From Acutalibacteraceae bacterium (GTDB lineage: Bacteria > Bacillota > Clostridia > Oscillospirales > Acutalibacteraceae): a stretch of 64,000 nt of DNA. The translations under genes were made by a program, and so were the position numbers. The notes beneath the pieces are model-generated. The model was given only the letters and a program-made list of their open reading frames with translations. It searched no databases and was not told the DNA's origin. Positions within the stretch are counted from its first letter, which is position 1; every line of letters starts with the position of its first letter. Location of the stretch: assembly GCA_045602965.1 (NCBI GenBank), contig JAZSCO010000006.1, positions 3,008-67,007 on the forward strand. The letters are read 5' to 3'. Below are positions 2,244 through 34,864 of the stretch, in pieces.

Positions 2244-2250
2244 TACTATA

Positions 2251-12536: not shown

Positions 12537-12556
12537 ACAGAACTTATATTTATAAA

Positions 12557-13114: not shown

Positions 13115-13152
13115 AAAATACCGCCGAAAAAAATTCTTCGACGGTATTTTTT
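13115..13152 (-). terminator. Terminator after cstA
   Basis: aaaaataccg..cggtattttt inverted repeat. Confidence 0.65.
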
Positions 13153-13162
13153 ATTCAACAGG

Positions 13163-14893: not shown

Positions 14894-14938
14894 AACATAC
14901 TTCCTTTTAAAATATAATCCGTATAATTCATTCCGCTG

Positions 14939-17717: not shown

Positions 17718-17766
17718 TAAAAAAACGGCCTGACCGGATGCTGTTCCGATCAAGCCGTGATTTTTA
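17718..17766 (-). terminator. Probable terminator at the end of the vWA-tubulin operon
   Basis: acggc-tga-cgga...tccgatcaagccgt imperfect hairpin with A7 on the + strand. Confidence 0.55.
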
Positions 17767-18894
17767 TTTTTCAACAAGAAGGGTTACAATAACCAACACA
17801 ACAAGGAATGAGGTATTGATAAGCGTAAACAGACCCATGTATTTCTTGAAGTTTTTGGGCTGGTGCTTCAGATACTCCTTGAGAGTAATCAAGCTTGCAA
17901 GAGAGGAAATAATGATGCCCAATGAACCGATATTAACCGAAACAAGAAGTTCACGGTAGTCCTGAGTGAACTTTGAAAGGAAAATAGCGGTGGGAACGTT
18001 ACTGATGAACTGGCAGGAAACGATACCTGCGATGAGGGTGTTATCAGCAACGATGCTTGCGATGAAGTCCTTTATGGTATCGATTCTTGCGATGTTGCCG
18101 GAGAAAATGAAGAATACGCAGAAGGTCAGGAGAAGTGCGTAGTCAACGTGTTTAAATCTCTGTCTGTCAACAATCAGAACGGCAATAATAACAATTGCAA
18201 GGGTGATAACATGAGGAACGACACGGAAGATGCTGAGAATAACGAATACAAAAAGAACGGCATAAACTGCTAATTCCTTCTTTTTGATTTCGAATTTTTC
18301 CTTATTTTCAAGAACGAGTTTATCGTTTTTGATGAAGAGACATCCGACAAACAGAAGTACGGCAACCGTTATTGACTGGATAAGCAGAACGCCGAAGAAT
18401 TCAAGGGTCGGAATCTCGTAAAATGAGTAAAGGTACAGATTCTGGGGATTACCGTATGGCGTTATCATACCGCCCATGTTTGCGGCAATTGTCTGCATGA
18501 TAAACGTAAACGCAAGATATTTGTCGTTGTTGGTTGAATGCAGAACAATATATGTAAGGGGGAGGAAGGTAATCAGAGACATGTCGTTTGCAACGATCAT
18601 ATCAAAGAAGAATGTACCGTAAATAAGCGAATAAATAACTGCTCGTCTGGTTTTGAACATACCGATAAGTTTTTTGGAAATAAGTTCAAAAACGTTTGTG
18701 TTTTTAAGACCTGCAACAACTGCAAGCATGCAGAACAGAGCAATAAGTGTTTTGAATTCAAAATAATTGAGGTATTCTTTGTCAATCGGAACGAAGAACA
18801 AAGTGATTATCGTTGCAACGGTTGCAACAGACAATACAACCTCTTTTTTGGCAAATGCGATAACCTTGCCAAAAAATGTTTTAACAGCATTCAT
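17764..18894 (-). CDS. IT superfamily permease (ArsB/NhaD/CitM/SLC13-like)
   Basis: MIVAND..ITFLP, AANMGGMITPYGNPQNLYLY, VDYALLLTF, QFISNVP, VNIGSLG. Confidence 0.88.
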   Translation of the reverse strand: MNAVKTFFGKVIAFAKKEVVLSVATVATIITLFFVPIDKEYLNYFEFKTLIALFCMLAVVAGLKNTNVFELISKKLIGMFKTRRAVIYSLIYGTFFFDMIVANDMSLITFLPLTYIVLHSTNNDKYLAFTFIMQTIAANMGGMITPYGNPQNLYLYSFYEIPTLEFFGVLLIQSITVAVLLFVGCLFIKNDKLVLENKEKFEIKKKELAVYAVLFVFVILSIFRVVPHVITLAIVIIAVLIVDRQRFKHVDYALLLTFCVFFIFSGNIARIDTIKDFIASIVADNTLIAGIVSCQFISNVPTAIFLSKFTQDYRELLVSVNIGSLGIIISSLASLITLKEYLKHQPKNFKKYMGLFTLINTSFLVVLVIVTLLVEK

Positions 18895-18912
18895 TGTTTT
18901 TCACCTCAGAAA

Positions 18913-20568
18913 TCAGTCATCGTATTTATCAGACAGTCTTGCTTCCTTAATACCGTTGCGGCGGCAATATTCCTGAGCAAGAGAACCTTCGTTACAGTAA
19001 ACAACAACTTTGTCTTCGCAACCGTCAAAGATGCCCCAGCCCATATCCTTAACGGAGTCGGGGATGATAACGGTGTCAAGGCTTGTGCAGCCTCTGAATG
19101 CGCAGTCGTCAATCTTGATAACGCTGTTGGGAATCTCAATTTCGTCAAGAAGTGTGCAGTTGCAGAATGCACCTTCACCGATTTCGTTAACGCTGTCGGG
19201 CATTGTGATTCTGTTGAGCTTTTTGCTGTCGCAGAATGCCCAGTCGCTGATAACGGTAACGCTGTCGGGAATATCATACTGAACCTCACGGCTGTTTGCG
19301 GGATATGCAATAAGTATTGACTTGTTCTTGTTGAAGAGAACGAAATCGTTACCGTCACGCTTGTTGGGCTCTGACTTGAACTGCATATTCTTGGGGTCAA
19401 CCTTGATTGACTTCATGTTTTCGCAGCCTCTGAAGGGAGCTTCCGAAATGCTTATAACCGATGCGGGGATTTCAACCTTGGTGAGCGATTTGCAATTTTT
19501 GAATGCACTCTTACCGATTTTTCTCAAACCGTAGGGAAGTTCAACCGATGAAAGAGAGATACAGCCGTTGAAAACAAGGTCATCAATCTTTGTAACTGTA
19601 TCAGGAACAGAAATTTTTTCAAGTCCTACGCAGTCGGAGAAAGCATTTTCGCCGATAATTGTAAGATTTGAGGGAAGTTTGATATTCTTAAGGCTCTTGC
19701 AGGAGTTGAAAACGCCGCCATAGAGCTCTGTGAGACCTTCGGGAAGAGTGATATTTTCAAGAACTGCACAGTTTTCAAAAGCTCTTTCGCCGATTTTGAT
19801 GCAGTCATTATCAACTACAAGGGTCTTAAGGCTTACGCAGTCACGGAAAGCACTTTCGCCAACACGCACGGTCTTCTGAGGAATATGCATTGATTTGAGA
19901 TTGCTGCAGCCGCGGAAAGCTTCTGTTTCGATATCTTCAAGGCTTTCGGGAAGAGTGATTGTCTGAAGCTGCTTTCTGTCCTTGAATGCGCCTGCGCAGA
20001 TGATGCGTACGCCTTCGTCAACGTCAATTGTTTTACCGTTGTCTTCGCATTTCTTGAGCTTGCCGTCATCAAGAGTAAGTCTGTCCATAGCTTCTGCAGG
20101 AAGGTCTCTGACCATTGATTTGATAAGCTTATCCATGTTGTCTGCAGTGCTGTGGTGAGTATTTGCAAGAAGAATTTCGAATGCGGGAGGAACAGAGGTA
20201 TCTTCATCGAGATAGATGGGATAAAGTCTCTTGCCGTTTTCGCGTGCAACGATAACTTCCATGCCGCAGAAGGGAGATGACATTGAAGATTCGGATACAA
20301 AAAGGATAACTGCGGAGCAGCCCTCGATTCTCTTGCGAAGTTCATCTCTGAAGTCGTTGCCGTTTTCGCAGGATTCGTCGTACCAGATGCGGTATTTTCT
20401 GTCGTACAGTGCGTCAAGAATGGGATAAACTTTTGCAGTATCTCTGTGAGAATAGCTTACAAAAAGATAGGGTTCACTGCCGGTGTAAGCTTCGAATTTT
20501 GTAAGAATCAAGGGATATTCTTCACCGGTTTTCGGATTAGTCGCTGTCTTTTTTGTCTGATTAGCCAT
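18913..20568 (-). CDS. TIR domain - BspA-type leucine-rich repeat protein
   Basis: PYLFVSYSHRD..IWYD..SSPFCGMEV TIR motifs; more than 10 BspA repeats (I-xx-xAF-xxC-xxL-xxI-x-LP). Confidence 0.9.
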   Translation of the reverse strand: MANQTKKTATNPKTGEEYPLILTKFEAYTGSEPYLFVSYSHRDTAKVYPILDALYDRKYRIWYDESCENGNDFRDELRKRIEGCSAVILFVSESSMSSPFCGMEVIVARENGKRLYPIYLDEDTSVPPAFEILLANTHHSTADNMDKLIKSMVRDLPAEAMDRLTLDDGKLKKCEDNGKTIDVDEGVRIICAGAFKDRKQLQTITLPESLEDIETEAFRGCSNLKSMHIPQKTVRVGESAFRDCVSLKTLVVDNDCIKIGERAFENCAVLENITLPEGLTELYGGVFNSCKSLKNIKLPSNLTIIGENAFSDCVGLEKISVPDTVTKIDDLVFNGCISLSSVELPYGLRKIGKSAFKNCKSLTKVEIPASVISISEAPFRGCENMKSIKVDPKNMQFKSEPNKRDGNDFVLFNKNKSILIAYPANSREVQYDIPDSVTVISDWAFCDSKKLNRITMPDSVNEIGEGAFCNCTLLDEIEIPNSVIKIDDCAFRGCTSLDTVIIPDSVKDMGWGIFDGCEDKVVVYCNEGSLAQEYCRRNGIKEARLSDKYDD

Positions 20569-20585
20569 GGTTGTAGACCTCCTGT

Positions 20586-22502
20586 TTATTTAAGTTTAAT
20601 TATTTTGTATTTTTTGCCGGCAACGTTCCATTTGTCACCGAGTATATCCGGAATTCTGAGAACAAGTTCTTTATCGTAAACCGTTGTGTCTTTTCCTTCA
20701 AGGTCTTCGGATAATTCCTTGAGCTCCTCATATGCACACAGATACGGGTGCATTTTAAGTATCGGACAGTTGTGTCTGCCCTTGCTTATGCCGCTTTCAC
20801 GGTAAGCGTAAACATCTTCCTTCGTGGATTGAGTCCAGCCATCGGAATCGAGGAATGCCATCCATCGGTCATGTTCCGAAACGGAGAGACGTTCGATATA
20901 TTCCTCTGTATAATAATCGTTCATCTTTACGCATTCTGAATCGTCTGCATCTGCGGAATAGTCAAGTCCCATGAGGTTGAGCTTATATCTGATATGCAGT
21001 GCGTTGGCGCGGTTTGAACGTTTATTGACTTCAAAAATGTTGTATCGTTTCAATGCATCCTTGACATCAATTTCTCCGTCGGAGAAGATTTCTTCATATG
21101 CCAGATGAACATTTTTGGCGAGCTTTTCAAGCTCAGAGTCAACGAGAATTTCGTATGAAAAAACTTCTGACAGGCTTCCGAACGGAATCAAGTCATAGCT
21201 CATTTTTCTTTTTGCGTTGGATTCTGCTGTTGTTAAATTTTTGACAATATTAATCTTTGCGGGGTCTTGGATATGGCAGAAAATCGGGGGACAATTCTTG
21301 AAGTCCTTGTCCAGCTTGTAAAACAGGCGTCTGAGAACAAGACCGCTTTTCATTGTTTCGTTATCGGTGTCATCTGCAACGATAATGTAGTTTGCATCTG
21401 CCGCATTCTTGGTTATTGCATCGACCATTTCCTTATCGGTTTTGCAGTCATAAAAACTGATATTATAGCGGTCGGTAAATAAGTTGGGAGCGGAGAGCTT
21501 GAGGTCGTCGATCTTACTGTTTATGTCGATGCCCACAACGGATATTTTCATTCCGAAGCCGTTCAGCTGTCCGCACCAGGCAATCGCCTTGAGGGCAACG
21601 GTTGTCAGCGGAGTCATTCCGTGGAGCAAAACGTGAATATCGGATTCAGTATATTTGAACAGGGGATATTTATCGAGAAGGTTATAAACAAGAGTTTCAT
21701 ATTCATTGATGCAATGAACATCCAGCGAATCCTTATCTGCCGAGTCGATATAAACGGCATAGTCTTCGTGTCTGGAGAATTGATAAATATGAATGTGCTC
21801 CTGCTCCGAATCTTTGAGCTTTGAATATTTTTCTATCAGCTGAAGAGTGTGACTCAGAGAATCATCTTCGTTTTCGGAAATACAGAAGAAATAAACCTCC
21901 TTGTCTTTCCTGCCTTTGATATTCAGCTCTTCGATTTCTTCTTCTTTAAAAATATAACCAAGTTTGTTTTCATTTTCATCGGTTAGAGTATCGTCTGCGC
22001 TGTCTGCAAAAACAATGTCGCACTTCATTCTTTCAAGACTCTTTGCAAGTTGCAGTGAGCGTTTGTTAGCCTCAGAAAAGACAAACACGGGTCTTTTTCT
22101 TGTGTTGGCAATGAACAGCTGCATTGATGAGAAACAGCGGAATAAAACCGTTACCGCTGAAATTGCAGAGAGTGCAGGGAGTGAAATGTGAATTAATCCC
22201 AGTAAAACCATATAGATTTTAGTGAGAACGGGGTGTGGCATTCCCGAACTTATAACATCGTAGAATTCCATGATGTCTGCATCGATTGTCACAACCTGAA
22301 GGATATGAATGAAGTTGCCTACAAGACCTGATACAACGTCATATTTATTAAGGTAAGCGGGTAAATAAGCAATATAGGTTGCGCCGATAAGGCAGAGCAG
22401 AACAAATAAAACCCTTAAAGAACCTTTCCTTTTATCGAAAAAGGCTCGGACACCCAATATAATGAGGGTGAAAGAGATAGCTGCGCATATTATCCAGATC
22501 AT
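20586..22502 (-). CDS. Membrane protein with channel-like N-terminus, RCK/Rossmann-like domains and C-terminal RyR domain
   Basis: 3-4 N-terminal hydrophobic segments; EKLAKNVHLAYE..KRSNRANALHIRYKL..SEHDRWMAF..GW..HPYLCAYEEL matches the RyR repeat. Confidence 0.75.
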   Translation of the reverse strand: MIWIICAAISFTLIILGVRAFFDKRKGSLRVLFVLLCLIGATYIAYLPAYLNKYDVVSGLVGNFIHILQVVTIDADIMEFYDVISSGMPHPVLTKIYMVLLGLIHISLPALSAISAVTVLFRCFSSMQLFIANTRKRPVFVFSEANKRSLQLAKSLERMKCDIVFADSADDTLTDENENKLGYIFKEEEIEELNIKGRKDKEVYFFCISENEDDSLSHTLQLIEKYSKLKDSEQEHIHIYQFSRHEDYAVYIDSADKDSLDVHCINEYETLVYNLLDKYPLFKYTESDIHVLLHGMTPLTTVALKAIAWCGQLNGFGMKISVVGIDINSKIDDLKLSAPNLFTDRYNISFYDCKTDKEMVDAITKNAADANYIIVADDTDNETMKSGLVLRRLFYKLDKDFKNCPPIFCHIQDPAKINIVKNLTTAESNAKRKMSYDLIPFGSLSEVFSYEILVDSELEKLAKNVHLAYEEIFSDGEIDVKDALKRYNIFEVNKRSNRANALHIRYKLNLMGLDYSADADDSECVKMNDYYTEEYIERLSVSEHDRWMAFLDSDGWTQSTKEDVYAYRESGISKGRHNCPILKMHPYLCAYEELKELSEDLEGKDTTVYDKELVLRIPDILGDKWNVAGKKYKIIKLK

Positions 22503-22587
22503 TTGATTACTTCCTTATCATATATCGGGGATAACCCCGACTTTGCGACTGCATTCCGATTGCAGAATGCAGTCGCGTAATCATTAA

Positions 22588-25500
22588 TTAAAGGGGTGGA
22601 TTCTCCTTGAACGGAGTTTTTGTAACGCTTGATTCTTCCGACAAAGGATATTTCTGAGTATAAATAATGAAACCTCTGCCGTATTCGTCATTTCTGAGAA
22701 TGGTTGTTATTTCCTGACGCTTTGCATACTGTTTTTCGTTCATGAGCATCAGATATTGGATTTCAGCCCATTTTGCCATGCCTTCATAGACTTCAAGCAT
22801 ATTCTGCTCTCCGTATTTGTTGGCAAGTTCGGCTTCATTCCAATTGAGATATTGCCATATATGGGTCAGTTCGTGAGCAATTGTTGCTGTTGCGGCGAGT
22901 TTGGGAGAGCCGTTTTCGATATAAAGGCTGTAGCCTGTTTTATCCTTTCGTGCAAATCCGAGAACTCTTCCGTCGAATCCGGGTGTTGCACCGAATTCCA
23001 TTCCTACGTGCTTGGCAATTTGCTTTGCGTTGGTTGTTCTGACCTTAACGGCAACATTGAGTTTGATTCCGTAGAAGGCTTCCATATTTCTCAATACGGT
23101 TTTGTAAAGAGCTTTGAAGTCATCAACCTTTTTGACCGCTGTCATTGAGCAGCGGTTGCAGCGCTCACGTCCGTCTTTGAGGACTTCATATTCGCCGCCG
23201 ACAAGCTCAACGCCACAGAAGTCGCACATATGAGCGCCGTACTTATTCGGGTCATATTCGCTGATTCCTTCCTGAGCCTTTCCTGATGTTTCACGGACTT
23301 GCTGAAGCGGATTCTTATCAAATTCAAGCTCTCTGAGCAATTCGAGAGTGCCGCTTATATCGAGAACTTCATCGAAATCGTCGAAACCGAACTTCAGGAA
23401 GCAGGTATTCTGATATGTAGTTGCCTCTTCTTCCTTGACAACCACAACTCCTGCAAGTTCTTCATCTTCACCGCCGATATCAGATGTTGCTTCGGATTCT
23501 TCTTCTGCATCTTCCGTTGTTTCTTCAGCGTGAACTTCGGATTCTTCGGGATTTACGTTCTTCATAATGCTCAACAAGCTGAACGAGCCTTCGGTATCGT
23601 CAGCCGTTTCATCGGTTGATTCTGCATCCGTATCGAATTCGGAAATATGTGTGGCGTCAGGAATTTCTTCTGCTGTTTCCTCTGTGATATTTTCGGAAAC
23701 TTCTTCTGAAATTTCTTTGTCCGGAATTTCCGGTTCAACCTCTGCAATTTCCTGCGGATTATCTTCTTCGGAAATTTCAGCAGGGATTTCTTCGTTGATT
23801 TCTTCCGGAATCTCTTCTGCGATTTCCTCTGCAGTTTCAGCGGGAGTATCGGCAGTTTCTTCAACTTCGGGTTCAGCTTCGGTTGCTTCCGTTTCCTCAT
23901 CCTTTTTCTTTTTGCCGAACAGCTTGCCGAGAGCTTCCTTGGCGTTATCGATTATGCCCTTGATTCCCTTCTTTTCGGGCTCGGGCTTATCGCCGAAATC
24001 AGGAACGAATTCTTCATCGCTCTCTTCTTTGGGCTCGGCAGGCTTTTCATCCATCTTTTTGGTATGCCAGTCAAGAACATCTGCAATAATTCCGAAATAT
24101 CTGTTGAGATTTCTCTCAACAGAAACTATAAGACCAAGGTCGATGTCGCTGTCTTCAACAATATAGATGCAGTTTTCTTCGTTTTCACCGTCAAGACGGT
24201 AGGTTGCGAAGGCGAGGTTTTCGGATTTGATTTCATCCGAATAAGGCGTCAGAGCCGAAATATAATGATAGGTTTCAGGATAGGTTGTGCGGAAAATTTC
24301 ATTCAGCAGTAAGCAGACAGTGTATCTTATACGGCTTGTGCTGCTTTCGGGAAGTTTGACCTTGAGAACGCTCTTATTGCGATATTTTCTGGTTGGGATT
24401 CCGTTGAGCTCAACCTTCTTTGCCTTTTTAAGGTTGCCGTAGGAGCTCATATCCAGATATCCGTCGGTTTCAACCGTAATATCGGCATATCCGCGAGTAA
24501 TTTCAATGTCGGAGGATGTTCTCTTGCTGCCCATTTCCGTTCCGTCAGCCCAGCTTTCGATTGCAACGCGGCGAATCTGTCTGTAGTAACGGCGGTCGGT
24601 GATATGGTCGGCAGCTCTTCTGACAACAACACCGTTGAGAGGCGTTACCGTCTGAACTTCGTAGTATTTTCCGTCGAATGTCATGAACTGTCCCGGCAAC
24701 ATTGCCTGGAAAACATGACCGTAGAGTTTTGCACCGATGAAGTGGCTTTCGCCCTCTTCGTCTTCGGCGATATAATAAGCGTTTTTAAGGAACTTTGCGT
24801 ATTCAAAGAGCTCGTTGGTTTCGTTGATTTCGTAGTGTTTGATAACAATGCTGTTGAGAGAATCGTTCTGAAGTTCTTCCTTGAATCTGACGCTCAGAGA
24901 AGCATCCTGAACGTTGCAGTGCTTGAATATCAATTCTTTCAATGTTGTGTACGGATCTTCAAACGGAATACCGCACAGCATGAGCTCTTTTGCAATTCTG
25001 TCTTCACTGACCGGTTCGTAAGCCATCATCATGATAAGCTTGAGTATCATGTTGCGTTCGGTTCTTGCGTAATCGGGAACAATGGTGGGAATTGCTTTGG
25101 GGTCTGCCGTGAAGACTTCAACGTTATCGAGCATATAATCTCTCAGGAAATAATTTTCGCTGATAACGTTAACAAAGCCCTGGCTTCTTGATCTTGAAGC
25201 GAATACACGGGTGATTTCAAACAAATTCTGGAATTCGTCTTCAACAACGAGGAAGGAATTGTCTTTTCTTTCAGTGCTCCACAGGTTCGAATAAACATTG
25301 AAAGTACGGTCAAACGAAGCCTGGCTTTCGGGCAAATCTGCATAGCGGCAGATGGTTTTGTGATACTGTCCCGCAATCCATTTCATATCAAGAACGGGAA
25401 ACTTTTCACTGCCGACCCAGCCTGTGTGATCGAGCTTATATTTCATTGCAACCGCATTGATTTCCGTACCCATGCCGAGATATCTGGAAATATTAGGGAA

Positions 25501-26946
25501 GATCTTGTGGTGCATATAGCTTCCGTCGGCATTCCAGTACATATTCGAGTTGTTTCCGCCGCCGTTAACGGTTGCGGTAACTTCGGTTATGCTGGTTTTG
25601 AGCGTATGGGAAAGTGCGTCAACAAGACCGTCACAGTTTCGGTCGCAAGCGCAGAACACGATGTCTTTACCTGTGCCTTCACAGTTGTTAACAAGAAGAC
25701 TAAGACCAATCTGACCGCTGGCAAGGATTCTTGAAGGTTCGACAATCAGAATAAAACCGACCTTTTTCAAGAATTCTTTGTTTGCTCTGTGGATTTTGAG
25801 GTTATGAATATCGCAGAACTTGATAATACCCACATCGGATACGTTTCCGTGCTCATCAAGCACTTGTGATTGCCAGAGACTGTCGGTGTTTGAGAAGTTT
25901 TCAAGACCTGTATCAATCCATTCCTTGACATCGTCAAGAGCAGAATCTCGACCGAGAACAATCAGACACTTTTTATAGCTTATAAGCTGTTTTATCATAG
26001 GAAGTGTTATGTAATGGGTCAGATCGCGGTAGAAAGGATTGCAGAAAAGGGTGCTTTTTCCGTTGAGGAGGCTGACCGTGCTTCTGACATAGTTTATGTC
26101 AATATCGGCACCGCTGTTTTTGAGATTCTGATAATAGGAGCCTATCATTTTCAGCGAAGGGTCATCGCTCTTTGTCATTTCTTCAAGCTCATCGAAGGTT
26201 TCGGAAATGCCGTCGGAAGTGTCGCAGGTATTTTCGTGGAGAACTCTGTCAGTGAAAAGGTCACGAAGGATTTCTCTGAGAATACCGTAGTTTGCGGTTT
26301 TGTATGATTCTTCGTCTTCTCCGAGAACATCTTCAACGAATTCCGTCTTTGTCATGCCCGAAAGGAAATAAACTATTTCGCCAAGGACAAGCAGACCGAA
26401 TACGGGATAGAAATTAGCTTTGAAGAATATGGATTCGGGGTAATTCTGTGAAAGAACGAACACTGCCATTGAAACAATCAGCGACGCAATATAGAAGCCT
26501 TTGACTAAACCTCTGAAGTTTGCAAATTGAGGTCTGAGCAACCATTTGTCAACGTCTTCTTCGCGGTCATAGAACCAGCCGGAAGTATAATCGTTGAGAG
26601 TTGCGGAGGATTTCCAGATTTCGTTGATTATCGGCAGTACAATGCCTTTGACAATGAAAAATCCGACAACCAATGCTGAGTTGAGCACATAGCTTGAGAT
26701 ATTCTGCCACGAGATTCCGACAAGGAAGGAGAAAATTTCTCCGAGCAGACTGAATACCGTGCGAAGAATATCTTCAATAAAGTCAAGCAAAACGACGCCT
26801 GCTATGCAGTATGCGAGCGCAACGACAGGCATGAGGAACTGTCTGGAACGATCAGCTTTGTTTAAATTCGTTTTGAATCCGGCTAAACAAAGTCCGAGGA
26901 AAGGCAGAACTCCCACTAATGTTTTTAAGAAATAAAGAAACTCCAT
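22588..26946 (-). CDS. 1452-aa membrane protein: TM region, degenerate SF2 (MrfA/Hrq1-like) helicase fold, acidic linker, Zn-finger + DA1-like HExxH peptidase
   Basis: About 5 N-terminal TMs; LPGQFMTFDGKYYEV and IYIVEDSDIDLGL resemble the MrfA/DUF1998 region; CDFCG..DGRERCNRC; IAHELTHIWQ..EGMAKW..YGRGF. Confidence 0.65.
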   Translation of the reverse strand: MEFLYFLKTLVGVLPFLGLCLAGFKTNLNKADRSRQFLMPVVALAYCIAGVVLLDFIEDILRTVFSLLGEIFSFLVGISWQNISSYVLNSALVVGFFIVKGIVLPIINEIWKSSATLNDYTSGWFYDREEDVDKWLLRPQFANFRGLVKGFYIASLIVSMAVFVLSQNYPESIFFKANFYPVFGLLVLGEIVYFLSGMTKTEFVEDVLGEDEESYKTANYGILREILRDLFTDRVLHENTCDTSDGISETFDELEEMTKSDDPSLKMIGSYYQNLKNSGADIDINYVRSTVSLLNGKSTLFCNPFYRDLTHYITLPMIKQLISYKKCLIVLGRDSALDDVKEWIDTGLENFSNTDSLWQSQVLDEHGNVSDVGIIKFCDIHNLKIHRANKEFLKKVGFILIVEPSRILASGQIGLSLLVNNCEGTGKDIVFCACDRNCDGLVDALSHTLKTSITEVTATVNGGGNNSNMYWNADGSYMHHKIFPNISRYLGMGTEINAVAMKYKLDHTGWVGSEKFPVLDMKWIAGQYHKTICRYADLPESQASFDRTFNVYSNLWSTERKDNSFLVVEDEFQNLFEITRVFASRSRSQGFVNVISENYFLRDYMLDNVEVFTADPKAIPTIVPDYARTERNMILKLIMMMAYEPVSEDRIAKELMLCGIPFEDPYTTLKELIFKHCNVQDASLSVRFKEELQNDSLNSIVIKHYEINETNELFEYAKFLKNAYYIAEDEEGESHFIGAKLYGHVFQAMLPGQFMTFDGKYYEVQTVTPLNGVVVRRAADHITDRRYYRQIRRVAIESWADGTEMGSKRTSSDIEITRGYADITVETDGYLDMSSYGNLKKAKKVELNGIPTRKYRNKSVLKVKLPESSTSRIRYTVCLLLNEIFRTTYPETYHYISALTPYSDEIKSENLAFATYRLDGENEENCIYIVEDSDIDLGLIVSVERNLNRYFGIIADVLDWHTKKMDEKPAEPKEESDEEFVPDFGDKPEPEKKGIKGIIDNAKEALGKLFGKKKKDEETEATEAEPEVEETADTPAETAEEIAEEIPEEINEEIPAEISEEDNPQEIAEVEPEIPDKEISEEVSENITEETAEEIPDATHISEFDTDAESTDETADDTEGSFSLLSIMKNVNPEESEVHAEETTEDAEEESEATSDIGGEDEELAGVVVVKEEEATTYQNTCFLKFGFDDFDEVLDISGTLELLRELEFDKNPLQQVRETSGKAQEGISEYDPNKYGAHMCDFCGVELVGGEYEVLKDGRERCNRCSMTAVKKVDDFKALYKTVLRNMEAFYGIKLNVAVKVRTTNAKQIAKHVGMEFGATPGFDGRVLGFARKDKTGYSLYIENGSPKLAATATIAHELTHIWQYLNWNEAELANKYGEQNMLEVYEGMAKWAEIQYLMLMNEKQYAKRQEITTILRNDEYGRGFIIYTQKYPLSEESSVTKTPFKENPPL
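23764..23838 (-). repeat. Imperfect 12-bp (4-aa) tandem repeat in acidic linker
   Basis: TAEE-IAEE-IPEE-INEE-IPAE-ISEE. Confidence 0.65.
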
Positions 26947-26948
26947 AG

Positions 26949-28985
26949 TTAAGATTTCGCCTCCTCTTCGTCAAACAAATCCTCGCGTTCAATCCACAGT
27001 TTTTCGATGAATTTATAGGGCGCCGTAACGTAATCACCCGTGGAATTGATGGGGATATCTTTTTCGTCAATGTTTGCAGCGAAATAATATAACGGGTTTT
27101 CTCTGGGAATGATGTCCGGCTTGAAGAATGAGGTTACTGTGGGAATCATTTCGTCGATACGGGTAATGCCGTAAGAGAAAATCCATTCTTCGTCTCTTTC
27201 GATAGCGGAGTGCAGAGCGCGTCTGTGAGAATTGAGAACGCTGTAATTCGAAAGAGCATTCTCCTTGCGGATATTAATTCCGTCAAGTATTGACTGAGCT
27301 TTCATGTAAGTGCAGATATCGGAAAAATATGTTTCGAATTTCGAAGCATAGGCTCTGATATTTCCCACAATGCCTCTCATGAGAGAATTGAAGCTCTTCA
27401 TTACATTAATTATATGTATTCTTTGAAGCAGAAGCGCAGCGAATCCGCCGACTGACGAGAGGATGAGCATGAGAAGGACAAGTCCGATTCCGGCTGTGAA
27501 TGCTTTGTCTGAAATTTCCTGCATTCTGATAAGATAGGGGATATAGCCGGCAAGAATAATCAAAAGAATAATGATTCCGCCGATTATTGCGGTTTTCTTC
27601 CTGAGACGGAAACTGATTTCTCTTCTTACCTTCTTATCGACTTTTGCAATTTCATCATTGATTTTTTTCTTATCAATGAGATTTTCAGCGCCGGAGGAAA
27701 TTATCTTCATTTCCAGTTCGGCCATAATCTCTTTGAGGTCGTCAAGCTGAAATTTATCGAGCTCATAATATTCGCCGACAAAGCTGTCGGTTTTCAGCCT
27801 GAGCATATTGGCTGATTTGTTGATTGCGCGACGGGGCATCTTGAGATAATTGCTGAGATTTATTTTCTTTTCTCTCAGCTGAGAGCTCCAGAATGCATTT
27901 TCGTCGGTGGGGCAGTCTCTGCAAAAGCCGATTTTTTTGAGGTTCATGTACAAGCCTTTTCCTTCGCTCTTTTCAATGACAACGGGAATATTCTGACGGG
28001 TAACGATTTCTTCTTCCTCGTCAAAGCTGTAATCCGGTCTGAGCTTAAGCTGTTCTTTTACGAAAGCATAAGCGGAGGTCATCTTGTTAAGATGCATATT
28101 GACGATTTTCCCGAGTTCTTCCTGAGAAACGTCAATGCGCATTCTGTAAACTCTGTATGCCTGCAGAGTACTTGCTGCTATTTTATTGATGGACAGGGTA
28201 AGAACTGACAGCCAGAATTCTGTTAATTCTCTCTGGTACATTGAATTATCGGTGTTGGCGATATCGTAGAAAAGGAATCTGCAGTTATTGGGATACTTAT
28301 TGCGCTCCCAGAAGGTTGAGCTGGTCATTTCCAGATGGTTTTTCCATGACTCAACAATTCTCGATTTTTCATTATTCTCAACCTTTTTCTTGGTTGACAC
28401 CAGAAGAATCTCTGTTGGACGGATATCGGTGAAAACGTATTTTTCGGAGAGTTCCTCCTGAAGTCTTGCAACTTCGGGATCTTCTGCTTTTTCCATATAA
28501 ACGGAAGTCAGGTTTTCATAATGATCGAGTGATAACTGATGGATTTCTTCATCGGTGAGTTCGGATTCGCGTACGCGGATCTTTTCGCCGCTTTCTTCAT
28601 CAATATATTCAAATGCTTTTTCGAATTCTTTGGTCGGTGCAGACGAATATCCGCCGATTATATGGGTAAGTCTGATAATCGGAACCGGACTTTCGTGCGG
28701 CAGTTCTTCCTGATCATAGCTTGAATAATCAAAGGGGTTATTACGACTCGGGCTGATAACACCTTTGTAATCATAAACTGAATCTGTGTTTAAAATCAAA
28801 GCGCGCCACTCTTTTTTGCCCTTAACAATGTTGTACAGATCCGGCACGGATGAGCGCACATCCGTACCGGACTCATTCCAGTCACAGAACGCAACGGAAC
28901 CGTCATCTATAAAAGGCTTGAACAAAAACTTATGATCTTTCATCAAATCGGAGGAGCGCTTGCTTTGAATGATGACCGTGAACAA
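26949..28985 (-). CDS. Hypothetical 678-aa protein with coiled coil and two TM helices
   Basis: Long ORF with RBS AGGAGGTG; two hydrophobic segments near aa 465-520; 2-nt gap to the next gene. Confidence 0.85.
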   Translation of the reverse strand: MFTVIIQSKRSSDLMKDHKFLFKPFIDDGSVAFCDWNESGTDVRSSVPDLYNIVKGKKEWRALILNTDSVYDYKGVISPSRNNPFDYSSYDQEELPHESPVPIIRLTHIIGGYSSAPTKEFEKAFEYIDEESGEKIRVRESELTDEEIHQLSLDHYENLTSVYMEKAEDPEVARLQEELSEKYVFTDIRPTEILLVSTKKKVENNEKSRIVESWKNHLEMTSSTFWERNKYPNNCRFLFYDIANTDNSMYQRELTEFWLSVLTLSINKIAASTLQAYRVYRMRIDVSQEELGKIVNMHLNKMTSAYAFVKEQLKLRPDYSFDEEEEIVTRQNIPVVIEKSEGKGLYMNLKKIGFCRDCPTDENAFWSSQLREKKINLSNYLKMPRRAINKSANMLRLKTDSFVGEYYELDKFQLDDLKEIMAELEMKIISSGAENLIDKKKINDEIAKVDKKVRREISFRLRKKTAIIGGIIILLIILAGYIPYLIRMQEISDKAFTAGIGLVLLMLILSSVGGFAALLLQRIHIINVMKSFNSLMRGIVGNIRAYASKFETYFSDICTYMKAQSILDGINIRKENALSNYSVLNSHRRALHSAIERDEEWIFSYGITRIDEMIPTVTSFFKPDIIPRENPLYYFAANIDEKDIPINSTGDYVTAPYKFIEKLWIEREDLFDEEEAKS

Positions 28986-29016
28986 ATACCGTCACCTCCT
29001 TATTGAGATGTTGCTT

Positions 29017-32000
29017 TTAGCCTCTTCTTTCCTGGGCTTCCTTACGGTGGATTCTGATTTCCTCCCAAAGGTCGTCGAGATCCTTATCTTCGAGGGATTC
29101 AGTTGCGACACGAATCATATCATCAATATATTCACTGAAGTTATCTTTCCAGTTTTCAAGATACCAGTCAATATTTGCGTCGAACTTCTTATACTGTTCA
29201 ACGATGAATCTGCCGTAAAGCAAGTCAACATCGTTTGAGAGGGTCATGGTCTTCATGTAGTCATAAACAACGTCGAGCATAACCTTCATGATATCTGCGC
29301 CGAGGTTCTTATCAAAGTTTGCGGAAGGGGTTGAAACCTTGAGAAGAGTTGCAAGGTCAAACAGAGTGAGGTTATCTTTGTTGTATTCCTTGGTTTCAAG
29401 AGCATCAAGTCTTGTCTTGAGCTTACTTGTTGCGAATGAAACCTTGGTTGCGCCGTTGATTTCCTTTTCGAAAATTCTTTCGGCGGCGCTGATAATGCAG
29501 TTAACGATAACGGGATTGATTGTGAGAGCGTCAAGAACTTCATAGAAGTTGTCGCAGGGAGTCTGGTTGGAAACAACGAAGTCTTCTGCCTTGCAGCCCT
29601 TGATTTCAAGTCTGTAAAGATATTTGCCTTCGGAAACCTTCGAATATTTGATCATGTCGAAGATAAGACCGAGCATGAATGCCTTGTAAATTTTGTTTTC
29701 CTGAGCAATCTGGTTCTTGTCGTCGAGGTCGGGGATAGCGGAAATGATATGCCAGTTACGGTCGATATGAGGAGTGATAACGGGAGTCTTGTCTGACTTG
29801 GGCTTGATCTGACTTACAAGTTCATAATAAGCCTTGAAGTATTCGCCTTCGCCTCTTCCTGTTTCGTCAGCGGGAGCAAACTTCGAGAGTTTGTTTGCTC
29901 TGAGACCGTAGATTGACTGATAGAACATAATCATGCCGAGAGGGATATCCTCATCGGGAGTACCGCCGTAGTTCTTGAGTTCTTTTGAGATGAGGCTTGA
30001 TCTGGGTGAATCGTCGCAGGGATCAAGCTTGGTATTATATGTGCAGGCGGAGATGGGAGCTTTCTGTTCGCCGAGAGGTCTTTCAATGAACGGATTGGAA
30101 AGCTTTCTTGTTTCAGCGATAACGTGCTTGACGTACTGCTCAACCTTTGCGGAATCGCATTCGTTCTGCTCAAGTTCAGCTTCTTTTTCAAGAGCGGTGA
30201 TGATGTCCATATTAACATCTTCGCCGTAGGTCTGCATGAGTTTTTTCTTGAAGTAGCCGATGATGCCGACTTCGAAGATTTCGCTGAAGTAGCCGTTGTT
30301 ATCGGGCTTATCCTTGAGCATTGAATAATTTCTGACCTTTGAGTAGATATCGTCTGCAAGGTCGCCGTCGATTGCAACAGCGCTGCCTGTGTAAGGCATT
30401 TTTGCAACAAGTTTGCCGAGGCAGTTGGATGAAGCGCAAACGTAACGAGCGGTCTTGCCTGAAGTGTGGTTATATTTCTTGGAGATAACGTTGATTCTTC
30501 TTGTGATGCTGTTGATCTTGCTTTCGAATGAAAGATAGAAGCTCTGGAAAGCATCGCAAAGACCGTTAACGTAGTCAATACCTTCTGCAAGAACAGCGGC
30601 AAGGATACCGTTAACGCGGTATTCGTCAGCCTTCTTCATGTAAGTGAGGAAGCTCTGCTTCATATCCTGCTGGTCGCCTGTGAGCTTACCGAGACGGTTA
30701 GCTGCGGAGATGCGGCGATCGCTGAGCTGATCGATTGATTCTTCGTCTTCTGTCTTGGGATCGTCGAATGTGTTCTTGAAATCTTCGAAGAACTTTTCAA
30801 CGTCACGGAGTCTCTTGTCAACCATTCTCTTTTCGGCCTTGAGAAGTTCGAATGCCTGATAGAGGAAATATCTTACTGCGTTGGGATGGATGAAGTTACC
30901 TTCACCGTCACGGAGATATGTTTCGAGCTGATAGCTCTGTTTTTCTTTTGTTACGGCATCGTTCTTTGCTTTGAAGATGGAGTAAGCGATTGTTCTTGCG
31001 GTGTCTTCGCTGCGCTTAACAATCATTGCGCGATATTTATCCATCTCTCTGAATGCATCCTGGAATTCGGACCATACTTCTGTGCCGCCCTTGATTTCGT
31101 CAACGGCAAGCTTTGCATTCTGCTTCTGGGAATCAAGGTCGGACTGACCTGATGAGGAGTTGATTTCAACGAATTTCTTGAGGTTGCCGACATACATCTC
31201 CCAACGAACGCCTTCCTTGGTGAGACCGCTTTCGTCGAAGATTGTGCACTGATTTACGATTGAGAGAGCAAAAGGATTCTTCTGCTTTGACATCTGTTCA
31301 ACGGATTCGATATAGTCGATGGCGGGGTTAGCGTCTTTTACTGCATAACCCTGGCTGCGCATTTCTGCGTTGTTGATGCACTTTTCTTTGTACATACGGT
31401 CGAAAACAAGCCACTGGTCGGAAACGCATTCCTGAGTCCACTTGAGAGCGATGTATTCTTTAACGTCATCAACGGGATAGATAAGCATTGGGCTGCCTGC
31501 GCCTGCATAACGGTTACGGCCCTGTTCTGCGCAAAGCTCACGGATTGTGTTGTCTTCAGAGGAGTTGCTGCGCTTGTTCATGGGACCGATTGACTGCGAA
31601 TAGATGCAGTTTGCAGCGTGATCAAGATACTGATTGAAGTCGTTGAGCTTTTTGCCTTCTGTATTCTGTGCATCGAAAAGGAAGCAGAAGTCATAGGGTC
31701 TTACGTTATATTCTTCAAATTCACCTGAGCCTACGCGGGGGAATTCAAGCTTGACTGTGTCAGCATATTTGTCGGGGAGAGTAGCGTCACCCTTCATTAG
31801 GAATGCATCAAGTTCGCGGAGAGTTGCATATGCATTGCACTTGAGGTTGTTACGTTCAGCCTGACCGCGGATAACTTCATAGAAAACTTCGGGAAGAATG
31901 AAGAAGCCTCTGGTGATGTTAGCGCTCTGCTGGAATCTTGTTGTAAGGAAATTTTTGATGTATGCAGCAACGGGGAGAATGAGACCCGAGCCTGTACCGC

Positions 32001-32442
32001 CTGCCAATGAGCTGACGATGATAACGCGGAGAGCCTGATCTGACTGCTCTTCCTCGAGCTTGTAAAGATCTTCGATTGCAGTGTGAAGGGGTTCCATGTT
32101 GCCTGCTCGGATAGCAGTATCAAGCGCAAGTCTTGAAATAGCACGCACCTGACCTGCACCTTCTGTGAGAGTTTTGCTGTTGAGGATTGCATTAACGGGG
32201 AACCAGGTATCTCTTGCATGAGTGTCGATGTTCAGATATTCTCCGACGGAGAGTTTTGTTGAAGTCTGAACAGTCTTGATGAAGGGATTTGCTTCGCGGA
32301 TTTCGCGGAGTTCGTTGATGTCTGTGTCGAAAACTGCGAATCCGATGCGTTTGCGCTGTTCCTCAGTTACCATTTTGGAAACACGGCAAACAATCTTAGA
32401 GCCTGTGCCTCCGAGACCTACTAATAATGTCGGTGCAATCAT
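29017..32442 (-). CDS. Tubulin/FtsZ-like GTPase (Tubulin_2/FtsZl1 type) with long helical C-terminal extension
   Basis: VGLGGTGSKI, FDTD, EGAGQVRAISR, SSLAGGTGSG, ILPEVF, NAYATLRELD nucleotide-binding loops. Confidence 0.9.
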   Translation of the reverse strand: MIAPTLLVGLGGTGSKIVCRVSKMVTEEQRKRIGFAVFDTDINELREIREANPFIKTVQTSTKLSVGEYLNIDTHARDTWFPVNAILNSKTLTEGAGQVRAISRLALDTAIRAGNMEPLHTAIEDLYKLEEEQSDQALRVIIVSSLAGGTGSGLILPVAAYIKNFLTTRFQQSANITRGFFILPEVFYEVIRGQAERNNLKCNAYATLRELDAFLMKGDATLPDKYADTVKLEFPRVGSGEFEEYNVRPYDFCFLFDAQNTEGKKLNDFNQYLDHAANCIYSQSIGPMNKRSNSSEDNTIRELCAEQGRNRYAGAGSPMLIYPVDDVKEYIALKWTQECVSDQWLVFDRMYKEKCINNAEMRSQGYAVKDANPAIDYIESVEQMSKQKNPFALSIVNQCTIFDESGLTKEGVRWEMYVGNLKKFVEINSSSGQSDLDSQKQNAKLAVDEIKGGTEVWSEFQDAFREMDKYRAMIVKRSEDTARTIAYSIFKAKNDAVTKEKQSYQLETYLRDGEGNFIHPNAVRYFLYQAFELLKAEKRMVDKRLRDVEKFFEDFKNTFDDPKTEDEESIDQLSDRRISAANRLGKLTGDQQDMKQSFLTYMKKADEYRVNGILAAVLAEGIDYVNGLCDAFQSFYLSFESKINSITRRINVISKKYNHTSGKTARYVCASSNCLGKLVAKMPYTGSAVAIDGDLADDIYSKVRNYSMLKDKPDNNGYFSEIFEVGIIGYFKKKLMQTYGEDVNMDIITALEKEAELEQNECDSAKVEQYVKHVIAETRKLSNPFIERPLGEQKAPISACTYNTKLDPCDDSPRSSLISKELKNYGGTPDEDIPLGMIMFYQSIYGLRANKLSKFAPADETGRGEGEYFKAYYELVSQIKPKSDKTPVITPHIDRNWHIISAIPDLDDKNQIAQENKIYKAFMLGLIFDMIKYSKVSEGKYLYRLEIKGCKAEDFVVSNQTPCDNFYEVLDALTINPVIVNCIISAAERIFEKEINGATKVSFATSKLKTRLDALETKEYNKDNLTLFDLATLLKVSTPSANFDKNLGADIMKVMLDVVYDYMKTMTLSNDVDLLYGRFIVEQYKKFDANIDWYLENWKDNFSEYIDDMIRVATESLEDKDLDDLWEEIRIHRKEAQERRG

Positions 32443-32473
32443 GATTGTTTCCTCCTATATAGAAAATATTTTT

Positions 32474-34624
32474 TTATCTGTTCAAATAGCAAGTGTATGT
32501 GAATTCTGTTGTTCTGAGTGAAATAGATGAACTTGCGCCGATGCGGTAAGGCTTTACTCTGCCGGCTTCAATTGCCATTCCGTTGAACGAGAATTCTTCC
32601 TTACCTGCAAAGTTTTTCATGTTTGTAATGTACATTCCGTTTCCGCCTGCAGCCTTGAGATGAGCTGTTTTCTTATGGGGTGACGGTGAGAAAACGACGA
32701 AGCCTGTTTCAGCTTTATAAGGAATCAAGGTCGACAGGGTGTTGCGTTTGAATTTGCCGTGAACCTCTTTGTCCTTACCGCCGATCTTTTCTGCACTGCA
32801 TTCAATGATGGGTCTTTTCTTGAGCTTTCTGGGAAGATATTTCTTGAAGGGGGGAATGTAGCCGAGAATGAGAATAAGGAGCGCAAGGCTGATTGTAAGT
32901 TCCGGCCAGTGATCTGACAGCCAATCCTTGACTCGGTCCATAAAGGTGATTGTGCTGCCGATTTCAAAGTTGTCTTCGAGCTTACCCTGTGCAGATGAAA
33001 GACCCTGTTTGAATCCGCCTTCAACAACCACGGGGATTTTTCCGCTTGCGGTTTCAAGAGGATTGCCGTCCTTAAGAGTGGGATAGACTTTGAAACTGCC
33101 GATTGTTTCAGCTTTTTCGATTCTGAATTCACCAAGATCAGCGGTTGTTGTGACGGTGGGAACGCCGAGAAGCTTCCACTGTTCTTCTGTCAGGTCAACG
33201 ATTCCGTCGCCGCTGTCTATCTGAACGCTGAGAATCATGGGGTCTTCAGGATTTTCAAAGCCGTCGGTGTTCAGAGTGTAAACGGGTTTTTTATCGAACT
33301 TGAAAATAATATCGTTTTTGCAGTAAACCTGATAAGAAAGATTTGCCGTAACGGTGTTATATTCAAGGAATCTTGCTGTAACGTCGATATCGATTTTTCC
33401 GTCTTTGATTGTGATTGTATCGCCCGACATGGCTTCGGAGGTTTTTGTTTCACCGTTTGAAGTTGTGTTAACGATAGAGGACTTATATTCGATATTGCCC
33501 AAAAGAGAGGTGTCCGTAACCTTTTCGCCGTTTGTACCGTTGACGAAACCAAATTCAAGTCGGTATGTGCCTGCTACGAGGTTGTCCTTTTCGGTAACCT
33601 CTTCGTTATCCTGGTTGAACAAATATGCAACGATTGAAACATTGGGTTTATAGTAAACCTGAATGTTGTCCGCACCGCTGACGTTCAATTTGTATGTTCC
33701 GGGTTCGAAGTCAGTGTTGAAGGTTGCAACGTAGCCGTTCAGATTATCGGCAACGATAACCTTATCGACGGGATAATTCTTGTCAATGGTTGCTGTCTGA
33801 CTGTACTGAACATGAACGTTTGATGAAGCATTCACCTTTTTACCGTCAGCAGAGGAAATGCCGTCTATCTTAACGGATTTACCCTGAGCAAAAACTATGA
33901 GCTGGCTCATCGGAATATTGAACGAAACGTTGTTTGCTTCGTCAACATTGAGGGCGTTACTCTGGAAAATGCGGTTGCAGATACGGGTAATCTTCAGAAG
34001 AATGTCTGTTGTGTTTTCTGCTTTTTCAAAGTAGATGTGCTTATCGGGATCGGGAGTGATAACAGCTGCTTCAGGTCCCATCGAAAGCATCATGACTCTT
34101 GTTTTGCCGTCATTAACGCATTCCTGAAAATAATTTTCAACTCTTGAGTTGCTTGCGTCGTTGAATTCACCGTCGGTAAGAACAACCAACCAGCGTTCAT
34201 CGGAATTGACTGTTTTCAGGTCTTCGTAAGCTTTCTTGACCGAACCGAAAGGAGTGTCGGAAGCATCAGTAATCAGGTCGTGAATCTTTTTGACGTTTGC
34301 CTCGGTTACGCTTGCATCCTTGCTGCCCTTCAGGCTTAATTTGGGCGGTGCAGTTGTTGACCCGTCGGCATAATCACTCATGTAATAGATGTTGAGGGTT
34401 TCTTTCTCGCCAAGCATACCCGCGAAAACTTCCATGGCGTATTTTGCCTGACACCAGGTATCAACATATTTGGAGCCTGTGTCGGAGCCGGTACGGATCA
34501 TACTTCCCGAGTCGTCATAAACCAGGTTAATGGTTCTTGTGGGAATAAATGTTTCGGCATGAGCCGTCAGGCAAAGAGGCAACAGCATCAGCAGAACCAA
34601 TGCAATCGCTGCAACTCGTTTCAT
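32474..34624 (-). CDS. Secreted, membrane-anchored von Willebrand factor A domain protein
   Basis: Signal peptide (AHA); MIDAS VYDDSGSM, DTP, LVVLTDGEFND; TM near aa 575-592; basic cytoplasmic tail. Confidence 0.88.
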   Translation of the reverse strand: MKRVAAIALVLLMLLPLCLTAHAETFIPTRTINLVYDDSGSMIRTGSDTGSKYVDTWCQAKYAMEVFAGMLGEKETLNIYYMSDYADGSTTAPPKLSLKGSKDASVTEANVKKIHDLITDASDTPFGSVKKAYEDLKTVNSDERWLVVLTDGEFNDASNSRVENYFQECVNDGKTRVMMLSMGPEAAVITPDPDKHIYFEKAENTTDILLKITRICNRIFQSNALNVDEANNVSFNIPMSQLIVFAQGKSVKIDGISSADGKKVNASSNVHVQYSQTATIDKNYPVDKVIVADNLNGYVATFNTDFEPGTYKLNVSGADNIQVYYKPNVSIVAYLFNQDNEEVTEKDNLVAGTYRLEFGFVNGTNGEKVTDTSLLGNIEYKSSIVNTTSNGETKTSEAMSGDTITIKDGKIDIDVTARFLEYNTVTANLSYQVYCKNDIIFKFDKKPVYTLNTDGFENPEDPMILSVQIDSGDGIVDLTEEQWKLLGVPTVTTTADLGEFRIEKAETIGSFKVYPTLKDGNPLETASGKIPVVVEGGFKQGLSSAQGKLEDNFEIGSTITFMDRVKDWLSDHWPELTISLALLILILGYIPPFKKYLPRKLKKRPIIECSAEKIGGKDKEVHGKFKRNTLSTLIPYKAETGFVVFSPSPHKKTAHLKAAGGNGMYITNMKNFAGKEEFSFNGMAIEAGRVKPYRIGASSSISLRTTEFTYTCYLNR

Positions 34625-34741
34625 AGAACATCTCCTCCGTTTCGGATTTGTTTTTGTTTTTTTGTCAAACTGATTTTAAAAATTACACTGCGCCTTCGAA
34701 AAATGCATAAAAATACACTTTTCGACTGTTACAGATAATTT

Positions 34742-34770
34742 ATTCTAACACTTTAAAATACTAATGTCAA
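34742..34770 (-). promoter_or_regulatory. Sigma-A type promoter for the vWA-tubulin operon
   Basis: TTGACA-17-TAGAAT with extended TG on the minus strand. Confidence 0.7.
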
Positions 34771-34830: not shown

Positions 34831-34864
34831 AAAAAACCGACCCCGTCAATGGACGGAGTCGGTA
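34831..34864 (-). terminator. Terminator after CASTOR-like gene
   Basis: accgac-ccgtc-aatg-gacgg-gtcggt hairpin with A5 on the + strand. Confidence 0.7.

Follow-up and report, generated by a model that had tools for sequence, protein, structure and literature searches.

Operons pairing a tubulin-like GTPase of the FtsZl1 type with a von Willebrand factor A (vWA) protein have been on record since 2010, when Makarova and Koonin (PMC2875224) tabulated them from computational analysis. Additional file 5 of that paper lists a vWA-FtsZl1-B5-B12 operon in Ruminococcus lactaris (RUMLAC_01529-01526) and Bacteroides capillosus (BACCAP_04124-04121), and membrane remodelling was proposed for FtsZl1-vWA operons. 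They were published as a prediction, and no experiment on them was found in the literature. The locus described here is a seven-gene operon (g1 to g7) on the minus strand of a 64,000-nt stretch of contig JAZSCO010000006.1 from an Acutalibacteraceae bacterium; this whole stretch is called the window below. Its first four genes agree with vWA-FtsZl1-B5-B12 in gene order, in sizes and in a vWA protein with an intact metal ion-dependent adhesion site (MIDAS), and a homologue of g4 (P0069, 59% identical) falls into one 90% cluster with R. lactaris proteins. The remaining three encode a channel-like protein with an RyR domain, a TIR-LRR protein and a permease. The locus very probably consists of two modules, a fixed core (g1-g4) and a swappable three-gene cargo (g5-g7), and the best reading is that the cassette repeatedly recruits a Thoeris-like TIR-to-channel unit. 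The repeated coupling of the core with TIR/RyR-channel cargo is what this locus adds. In its accessible part, the 2010 account mentions neither a helicase body in B12 nor a tubulin-like fold in B5, nor RyR, TIR, CASTOR or permease cargo.

A second group of related operons are the GAP1-N2 systems (Kaur et al. 2020, PMC7159879), described in the available sections as Firmicute operons with two tubulin-domain and coiled-coil genes, an outward-facing transmembrane (TM) vWA protein and variable effectors. They are defined by GAP1, a double GTPase and FNIII, none of which is found among the seven operon genes or in the window, and GAP1 Pfam matches were absent from g3 homologues (0/40). The core belongs to the FtsZl1-vWA class of 2010 and is not a GAP1-N2 system. 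One of the other loci collected, L042, looks GAP1-N2-like (DO-GTPase2).

For the cargo, the closest described counterpart is Thoeris type X, which combines a TIR protein with the ion-channel effector ThsK (bioRxiv 10.64898/2025.12.03.692087). Here, too, a TIR gene adjoins a membrane channel-like gene in one operon (g6 begins 17 nt after g5), but the TIR domain is fused to LRRs and the candidate effector bears an RyR domain. The main text of that survey, in the part available, names no RyR, RCK, TrkA, LRR or vWA effectors, so the cargo cannot be filed as Thoeris type X; the 29 putative effector types in its Figure 1C and Table S1 may include the g5 family. The RyR (Repeat12) domain itself has been studied in phages, where RyDEP (PMC13232231) and RyR Tad (bioRxiv 10.64898/2026.06.04.730250) are described, in the portions accessible, as binding or cleaving cyclic ADP-ribose (cADPR) isomers (2'/3'cADPR) from TIR enzymes by means of HxxW and H residues. 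H544, W547 and H585 of g5 correspond to these H/W/H ligand residues. The phage proteins are, however, small anti-defence hydrolases or sponges, whereas g5 is host-encoded, membrane-bound and equipped with an RCK-like region.

The original prediction had regarded the whole combination as undescribed. This no longer applies to the first four genes, which are in the 2010 table, but it stands for the rest: a literature search, with subscription papers and bioRxiv supplements outside its reach, did not turn up any account of a host unit combining an RyR channel with TIR, nor of a link between such a unit and FtsZl1 operons.

Core conservation and cargo exchange

Genes g1 to g4 form a fixed four-gene tubulin-like membrane cassette. 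Upstream of g4, g3 is present in 108 of the 110 loci with room for it, g2 in 94 of 97 and g1 in 79 of 81; loci L005-L043 were fetched via g2 and the other ~90 via g4. Its distribution is patchy: of 41 relatives, 3 gave tubulin matches, as did 19 of the 401 genomes searched in the order, and g4 was found in 10 of 131 congeners. The g3 profile matched none of 400 genomes drawn across the phylum, so that, within what was searched, the cassette is seldom found beyond this order and Lachnospiraceae; the closest named carriers of the core are uncultured Clostridia and Lachnospiraceae. No match to g4 was found in plasmids, and viral contigs yielded one g4 locus and one g5 locus. On a contig of the viral collection (L174), an RyR-family gene is convergent with a TIR gene.

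Some occurrences depart from this pattern. A core is present in a Myxococcota metagenome-assembled genome (L020, g2 60% identical) and a g3 homologue in Salinibacterium (P0222), both hinting at transfer or binning error. Decay of the cassette is visible in remnants (L165 on G019:C1, L120, L053), among them an isolated g4 fragment of 259 aa and g3-g4 lacking g1-g2. In three loci (L013:5437-7656, L012:51-2201, L092:1813-4032), a 739-aa protein without Pfam match is encoded upstream of the vWA gene and equals family 'B13' of the 2010 table in size.

What follows g4 is variable. Cargo was scored within 7.5 kb downstream in 59 core lineages, which are the 90% clusters of the 92 loci (out of 121) with at least 2.5 kb of downstream sequence. 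An RyR gene was found in 11 lineages, a CASTOR-like gene in 5, either of these in 14, a TIR gene in 14, a permease gene in 3 and an FtsK gene in 9; one RyR label is weak (L087, score 62, no Pfam match), and some of the TIR genes are opposite-strand TIR-methyltransferases (E 4e-4). By arithmetic from ~40 matches in 400 genomes, a random 7.5-kb segment would hold an RyR gene well under 0.1% of the time. The full order of core, RyR, TIR-LRR and permease genes recurs in the distant locus L100, where the core is 28-39% and the TIR-LRR protein 73% identical and a CASTOR-like gene (70% identical) comes after the permease gene. L090 has g4-RyR-TIR-LRR-permease, and both L090 and L005 keep the order as far as their contigs reach. 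On the g4 tree (FastTree, rows below 900 aa excluded), channel cargo shows 13 changes, at least 9 of them forced by strong branches, and core-adjacent RyR genes show 6 changes on the RyR tree (a quick tree, rows below 450 aa excluded).

CASTOR-like genes belong to the same picture. In the window, such a gene (g0, matching CASTOR/DMI1, PDB 6o6j and 7vm8, E 1.6e-6) is a separate transcription unit that the original prediction did not note; relatives carry one directly downstream of core or cargo (L008:13675-15780, L026:14035-16128, L079:13570-15468, L100:19997-22102, L104:14588-16624). In L008, the nearest relative, it lies directly 3' of g4, and the gene order in the window is a permutation of that in L100. 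The genome has a second CASTOR-like gene on contig C188.

The association of core and RyR genes extends beyond adjacency. The RyR family occurs in 32 of 400 genomes, namely in 8 of the 14 core genomes versus 24 of the 386 others (observed 8, expected 2.6 within families, P 4e-4), a co-occurrence that kinship and shared habitat may inflate. Core and RyR genes are adjacent in one of these 8 genomes, and in genome G260 the core, an RyR gene and TIR-LRR-permease each lie on a contig of their own.

Other genes in the slot after g4 are conflict-type: TIR-WD40, TIR-HD, NB-ARC-TPR, KAP NTPase, SLOG, and FtsK with polymorphic-toxin and SUKH genes. One core clade (L021-L023, L025, L115-L117, L120, L122, L123) has an FtsK/SpoIIIE-type ATPase gene after g4 and then genes for HNH, ADP-ribosyltransferase, papain-fold and SUKH proteins, an arrangement like that of polymorphic toxin loci linked to secretion. 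In loci of the Lachnospiraceae type, KAP NTPase-methyltransferase (L011, L019, L060, L069) and TIR-methyltransferase genes (L015, L019, L058, L059) switch between positions upstream and downstream of the core. In L040, the gene directly after a different Tubulin_2 gene (13286-16003) is a TIR gene of the CAP12/Pycsar type (11757-13154), a further tubulin-TIR pair.

The 85-nt gap between g4 and g5 marks the junction of the two modules. It contains a 12-bp hairpin (22576-22545), absent from the original prediction, with AAAG in the place of a U-tract, and a 6-bp hairpin after that. Comparison of the window with L005 and L006 shows clearly related post-g4 hairpins; of the three, only that of L006, which precedes an unrelated gene, ends in a U-tract. 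More broadly, a U-tract accompanies the hairpin in none of 5 loci followed by a channel gene versus 8 of 13 followed by an unrelated gene (p 0.036, in a second-attempt test). The missing U-tract where a channel gene follows suggests that transcription reads through the junction into the cargo, and core and cargo are likely read as one transcript.

Predicted products of the seven genes

The domain assignments of the original prediction (a vWA protein with MIDAS, a tubulin-like GTPase, a pseudo-helicase, an RyR protein, a TIR-LRR protein and a permease) were borne out by the searches described below, with the exception of one peptidase label. The g1 protein has a hydrophobic N-terminal leader, a vWA domain, one TM segment (575-593) and a short basic tail, and is predicted to be an outward-facing receptor. 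Its five MIDAS residues (D37, S39, S41, T124, D151) are invariant in all 27 homologues (19-77% identity), and a weak collagen-VI profile match was obtained (E 0.0056). The g2 protein matches Tubulin_2 (PF13809) over residues 6-340 (E 2.6e-58). It has the signature loop AGGTGSG (GGTGSG at 148-153), with G148, G149, T150, G151 and G153 invariant in 24/24 sequences, and a long C-terminal extension without any further Pfam domain; the family is expected to have a GGGTG(S/T)G-type loop and ~1000-1200 aa with a coiled-coil or helical extension and neither FtsZ_C nor Tubulin_C.

The g3 protein may well be a degenerate tubulin fold, or pseudo-tubulin, to judge from its structural model. In the model (predicted local distance difference test score, pLDDT, 86), a head of alpha/beta type is joined to a long helical stalk, which bears a hairpin of two TM segments at its tip. 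When the model was searched against 48,161 chains, the 50 best rows included eight tubulin/CetZ/FtsZ chains (Z 7.2-8.6, root-mean-square deviation 4.3-4.9, 176-209 aligned), the only large alpha/beta matches among those 50; an ordinary Rossmann enzyme scores 6.2. The best local profile matches between g3 and g2 are non-significant (E 0.12-0.13); in them, g3 strand 192-200 falls on the strand preceding the g2 signature loop and the last g3 strand on the next strand of g2. No GTP-binding signature loop is present in g3 or in the consensus of its family. An Atlas look-up of a g3 homologue returned no structure and no named cluster, the clusters found all lying below 0.9, and PDB sequence-profile searches using g3 and g4 yielded nothing useful.

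For g4, the layout comprises ~6 N-terminal TM segments, a helicase body, an acidic disordered linker, a four-Cys zinc ribbon (1241-1266) and an HExxH motif (1358-1362) with E1388 downstream. In the model of residues 253-1452 (pLDDT 83), the body matches the MrfA/DUF1998 superfamily 2 helicase (PDB 6znp) with a Foldseek E of 5e-20 and a Z of 15.4 over 548 residues. Where Walker A and DExH would stand, the 17 rows shown (of 100) have FCNPFYRD and VEPS-type sequences. As modelled, g4 is an MrfA-type helicase fold without the ATP motifs; unlike MrfA, it is membrane-anchored and carries a peptidase. In the family alignment, E1359 is found in 93 and E1388 in 90 of 100 rows, the exceptions being mostly rows without the peptidase domain, and the zinc-ribbon cysteines counted are similarly frequent (C1263 89/100, C1266 91/100). 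In some relatives the peptidase has a gene of its own, or there is a transglutaminase-like domain, either fused or downstream. The peptidase had been labelled as DA1. The HExxH...E motif is indeed present, accompanied by upstream Cys pairs, but the DA1 name is unconfirmed: at E 0.1 there is no DA1 Pfam match, and only weak matches to uncharacterised metallopeptidases were obtained.

Among the cargo products, g5 has three hydrophobic segments, a pore-loop-like stretch, an RCK/TrkA_N-like region and a C-terminal RyR (Repeat12) domain. The latter was recognized by a PDB profile search (E 2.5e-8); g5 itself lies below the Pfam threshold (PF02026). The domain has H544, W547, K583 and H585, and the equivalent of the Asp ligand, which follows an insertion, is ambiguous (D605 or D610). 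H544 and W547 are kept in 33/33 and H585 in 32/33 rows of the RyR alignment; across 47 family members, the counts are 44, 47 and 45, respectively. The Atlas model available for a homologue (64% identical) fits a TrkA_N + RyR cluster of 1090 members (TM-score 0.65-0.70 over 474 residues). A profile comparison of g5 with CASTOR-like proteins was not significant, and no PADLOC 2023 or NCBIfam match to g5 was found. Elsewhere in the RyR family, fusions occur, such as a kinase joined to an RyR-family region and a Card1-like nuclease (L149:5515-9753, the L168:5012-8500 region, G868:C80). In eight loci (L124, L137, L138, L140, L146, L148, L168, L172), the RyR channel-like gene lies directly 3' of a gene for a soluble double-AAA+/M41 peptidase (~1130-1350 aa), which is thus another partner that recurs.

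The soluble, cytoplasmic g6 protein is a TIR domain (36-132; TIR_2, E 1.1e-17) fused to BspA-type LRRs (LRR_5, E 8.7e-82), with an additional match to ThsB_TIR. Its Glu104, within PFCGME, is kept in all 4 orthologue rows listed (of 5) and, by the TIR consensus, stands at the expected catalytic position. Profile searches identified g6 as the only TIR gene and g5 as the only RyR gene in this 82%-complete genome, and 88 congeners contained no close TIR-LRR orthologue (best 41%). The g7 permease matches CitMHS (E 2.9e-29). Permeases of this family are common (193 of 400 genomes), and 19 of the 20 top permease loci lack a TIR gene. The idea that the permease is unrelated to the TIR-LRR protein was nevertheless dropped, since a permease gene follows in 3/3 orthologue loci with room (L090, L100, L182); the two are likely conserved partners.

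Operon signals and surroundings

The architecture of the original prediction was recovered in full: open reading frames, promoter consensus and hairpin scan returned seven co-directional genes separated by 31, 31, 2, 85, 17 and 18 nt from g1 to g7, behind one promoter and ahead of a terminal hairpin (Table 1). Shine-Dalgarno-like purine-rich stretches precede the gene starts. The promoter is one of three 11/12 sites among 43 sites found (32.5 +/- 5.7 expected from shuffles), and the two terminators in the table are the longest of 27 terminator-like sites, flanking the operon on both sides. The GC content of the operon genes is 0.39-0.46, compared with 0.415 for the genome.

Table 1. Features of the operon and of the adjacent g0 unit, in window positions.
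Feature	Position	Strand	Basis
Intrinsic terminator closing the operon, 14-bp stem, U-tract	17725..17758	-	hairpin scan
g7, 376 aa, CitMHS/NhaD-like ion-transporter-family permease	17764..18894	-	Pfam
g6, 551 aa, TIR-LRR	18913..20568	-	Pfam
g5, 638 aa, TM-RCK-RyR channel-like protein	20586..22502	-	PDB profile, alignment
Core/cargo junction hairpins	22525..22576	-	sequence
g4, 1452 aa, family 'B12', membrane pseudo-helicase + zinc peptidase (predicted)	22588..26946	-	model, motifs
g3, 678 aa, TTG start, family 'B5' of the 2010 table, 2-TM protein	26949..28985	-	model
g2, 1141 aa, FtsZl1/Tubulin_2 GTPase	29017..32442	-	Pfam, signature loop
g1, 716 aa, vWA membrane protein	32474..34624	-	MIDAS residues, weak profile match
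Sigma-A-like promoter TTGACA-17-TAGAAT, extended TG	34742..34770	-	11/12 consensus match only
Terminator separating g0 from the operon promoter	34836..34863	-	hairpin scan
g0, 701 aa, CASTOR/POLLUX-like channel protein	34887..36992	-	profile match
TTGACA-17-TATAAT promoter consensus 5' of g0	37081..37109	-	read from sequence

Beyond the operon terminator lies a gene for a secreted 5'-nucleotidase (14939-17641, minus strand) with its own promoter consensus (17704-17676) and no linkage in relatives. Positions 1357-5745 hold LicD, sodium:solute symporter and choline kinase genes of lower GC content (0.34-0.39), likely a phosphocholine surface-modification cluster.

Possible roles of the locus

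Taken together, fixed cassette and swappable cargo could constitute a membrane surveillance, anti-invader system, for which we see about an even chance. Such a system would start with a surface ligand, a trigger proposed by inference, docking to the outward-facing vWA protein; the FtsZl1 GTPase would then assemble in a GTP-dependent manner on the membrane-anchored, predicted pseudo-tubulin and pseudo-helicase scaffolds, and this assembly would release the tethered zinc peptidase of g4. These steps are read from the anatomy of the proteins. On the cargo side, the TIR-LRR protein would convert NAD+ into a cADPR-type signal, and binding of this signal in the RyR pocket would open the channel-like protein. 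That the TIR signal is read by the RyR protein is somewhat more probable than the surveillance role, given the conserved residues and the published activities of related domains, from which NADase activity, cADPR binding and ion flux are inferred. A defence role is plausible, and for a conflict or defence function of the whole locus the balance is even. A direct biochemical coupling of core and cargo, suggested by repeated recruitment and co-occurrence, is doubtful. The most ambitious version is unlikely: a trans-membrane immune pathway of eukaryote-like parts, in which an integrin-type vWA protein would drive an active/inactive tubulin pair to assemble on the membrane, a dead helicase would sense or hold nucleic acid and release a zinc protease, and an NLR-like TIR-LRR protein would make cADPR that opens an RyR channel.

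Several observations weigh against the surveillance reading, and some of them speak for hitchhiking, in which the post-g4 slot, with its strong promoter upstream and its leaky hairpin, would simply favour the landing of immune or signalling genes, which collect there as in defence islands while core and cargo work independently. The cargo is interchangeable, and 37 of the 59 lineages have no RyR, CASTOR, TIR or permease gene within 7.5 kb downstream. Two of the three closest relatives differ from the window, L008 having only a CASTOR-like gene and L006 an unrelated one. RyR and g4 identities are discordant (g4 68% and RyR 24% in L090; 38% and 42% in L104), and RyR genes mostly occur without a core, none of the 33 RyR loci fetched from a 400-genome sample of the order adjoining a core gene; 9 of these 33 have a TIR gene (11 counting DUF4062) and 6 an AAA+/M41 protease gene. 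In L182, TIR-LRR-permease stands alone, without the core. At genus level, co-occurrence is weaker (3/10 versus 10/121, p 0.06), related genomes not being independent, and the hairpin comparison is small, an earlier version, which overlooked obvious hairpins, having given 0/3 versus 6/16; an internal promoter within the operon may also exist. As for the proteins, the pseudo-tubulin call for g3 was made from Z scores of 7-8.6 without sequence support, there being no Foldseek match at E 0.001 and no significant tubulin support from profile comparisons. Unlike RCK-gated K+ channels, g5 lacks the TVGYG filter, its pore-like stretch VVTIDAD is variable among relatives, and its RCK region is supported solely via the Atlas model of the homologue. 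Hitchhiking nevertheless appears rather unlikely. The slot recruits narrowly, taking up channel-like or TIR genes that include two different RCK-type channel families gained many times, and the co-occurrence persists in 7 of 8 genomes where the genes are not adjacent, which adjacency alone leaves unexplained.

The genomic setting is likewise not that of a typical defence locus. The remaining window genes are metabolic or housekeeping genes, the GC content of the operon matches the genome, no convincing flanking repeats were seen around the locus, and the window contains no integrase; the locus is therefore not in a defence island, and a mobile element with att sites was rejected as an explanation. 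The PADLOC scan, proposed to establish that the locus is unassigned, gave weak TIR matches only. This setting would suit envelope remodelling combined with ion signalling, an extension of the 2010 proposal in which g2 and the stalked g3 would shape or vesiculate the membrane upon a vWA adhesion cue while channels, TIR signal and permease tune ions. CASTOR-like and transporter genes are atypical as killing effectors, and the layout of g3, with head, stalk and TM hairpin, is reminiscent of that of membrane-shaping GTPases. The patchy presence of the cassette, its divergent variants within one genus and its conflict-type neighbours fit conflict systems better, as does the classification of sister tubulin-vWA operons as conflict systems, and remodelling is, in our estimate, quite improbable, somewhat more so than hitchhiking.

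Least probable by far is a single undescribed machine to which every one of the seven products is indispensable, as the original prediction had envisaged. The tight gaps under one promoter and terminator and the identical seven-gene order in L100 speak for it. The linkage in the survey is beyond chance, and the orders of L100 and L090 support it, but the modules are each found without the others, the g7 family is widespread and the core had already been tabulated; the existence of free-standing modules largely refutes an obligatory machine. The recruitment of a Thoeris-like unit by a fixed cassette remains the best reading.

FtsZl1 operons have been without a tested function since 2010, and the recurrent recruitment of a TIR protein and a channel with a nucleotide pocket supplies an output that can be assayed. 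The gating of ryanodine receptors by cADPR via Repeat12 is a question reopened by the 2026 phage RyR papers, and a 638-aa bacterial channel-like protein beside its own TIR enzyme makes it directly testable. Should the ambitious version above hold, the locus would offer, on the side of the bacterial host, an equivalent to the gating of ryanodine receptors by cADPR, attached to a tubulin-based sensor.

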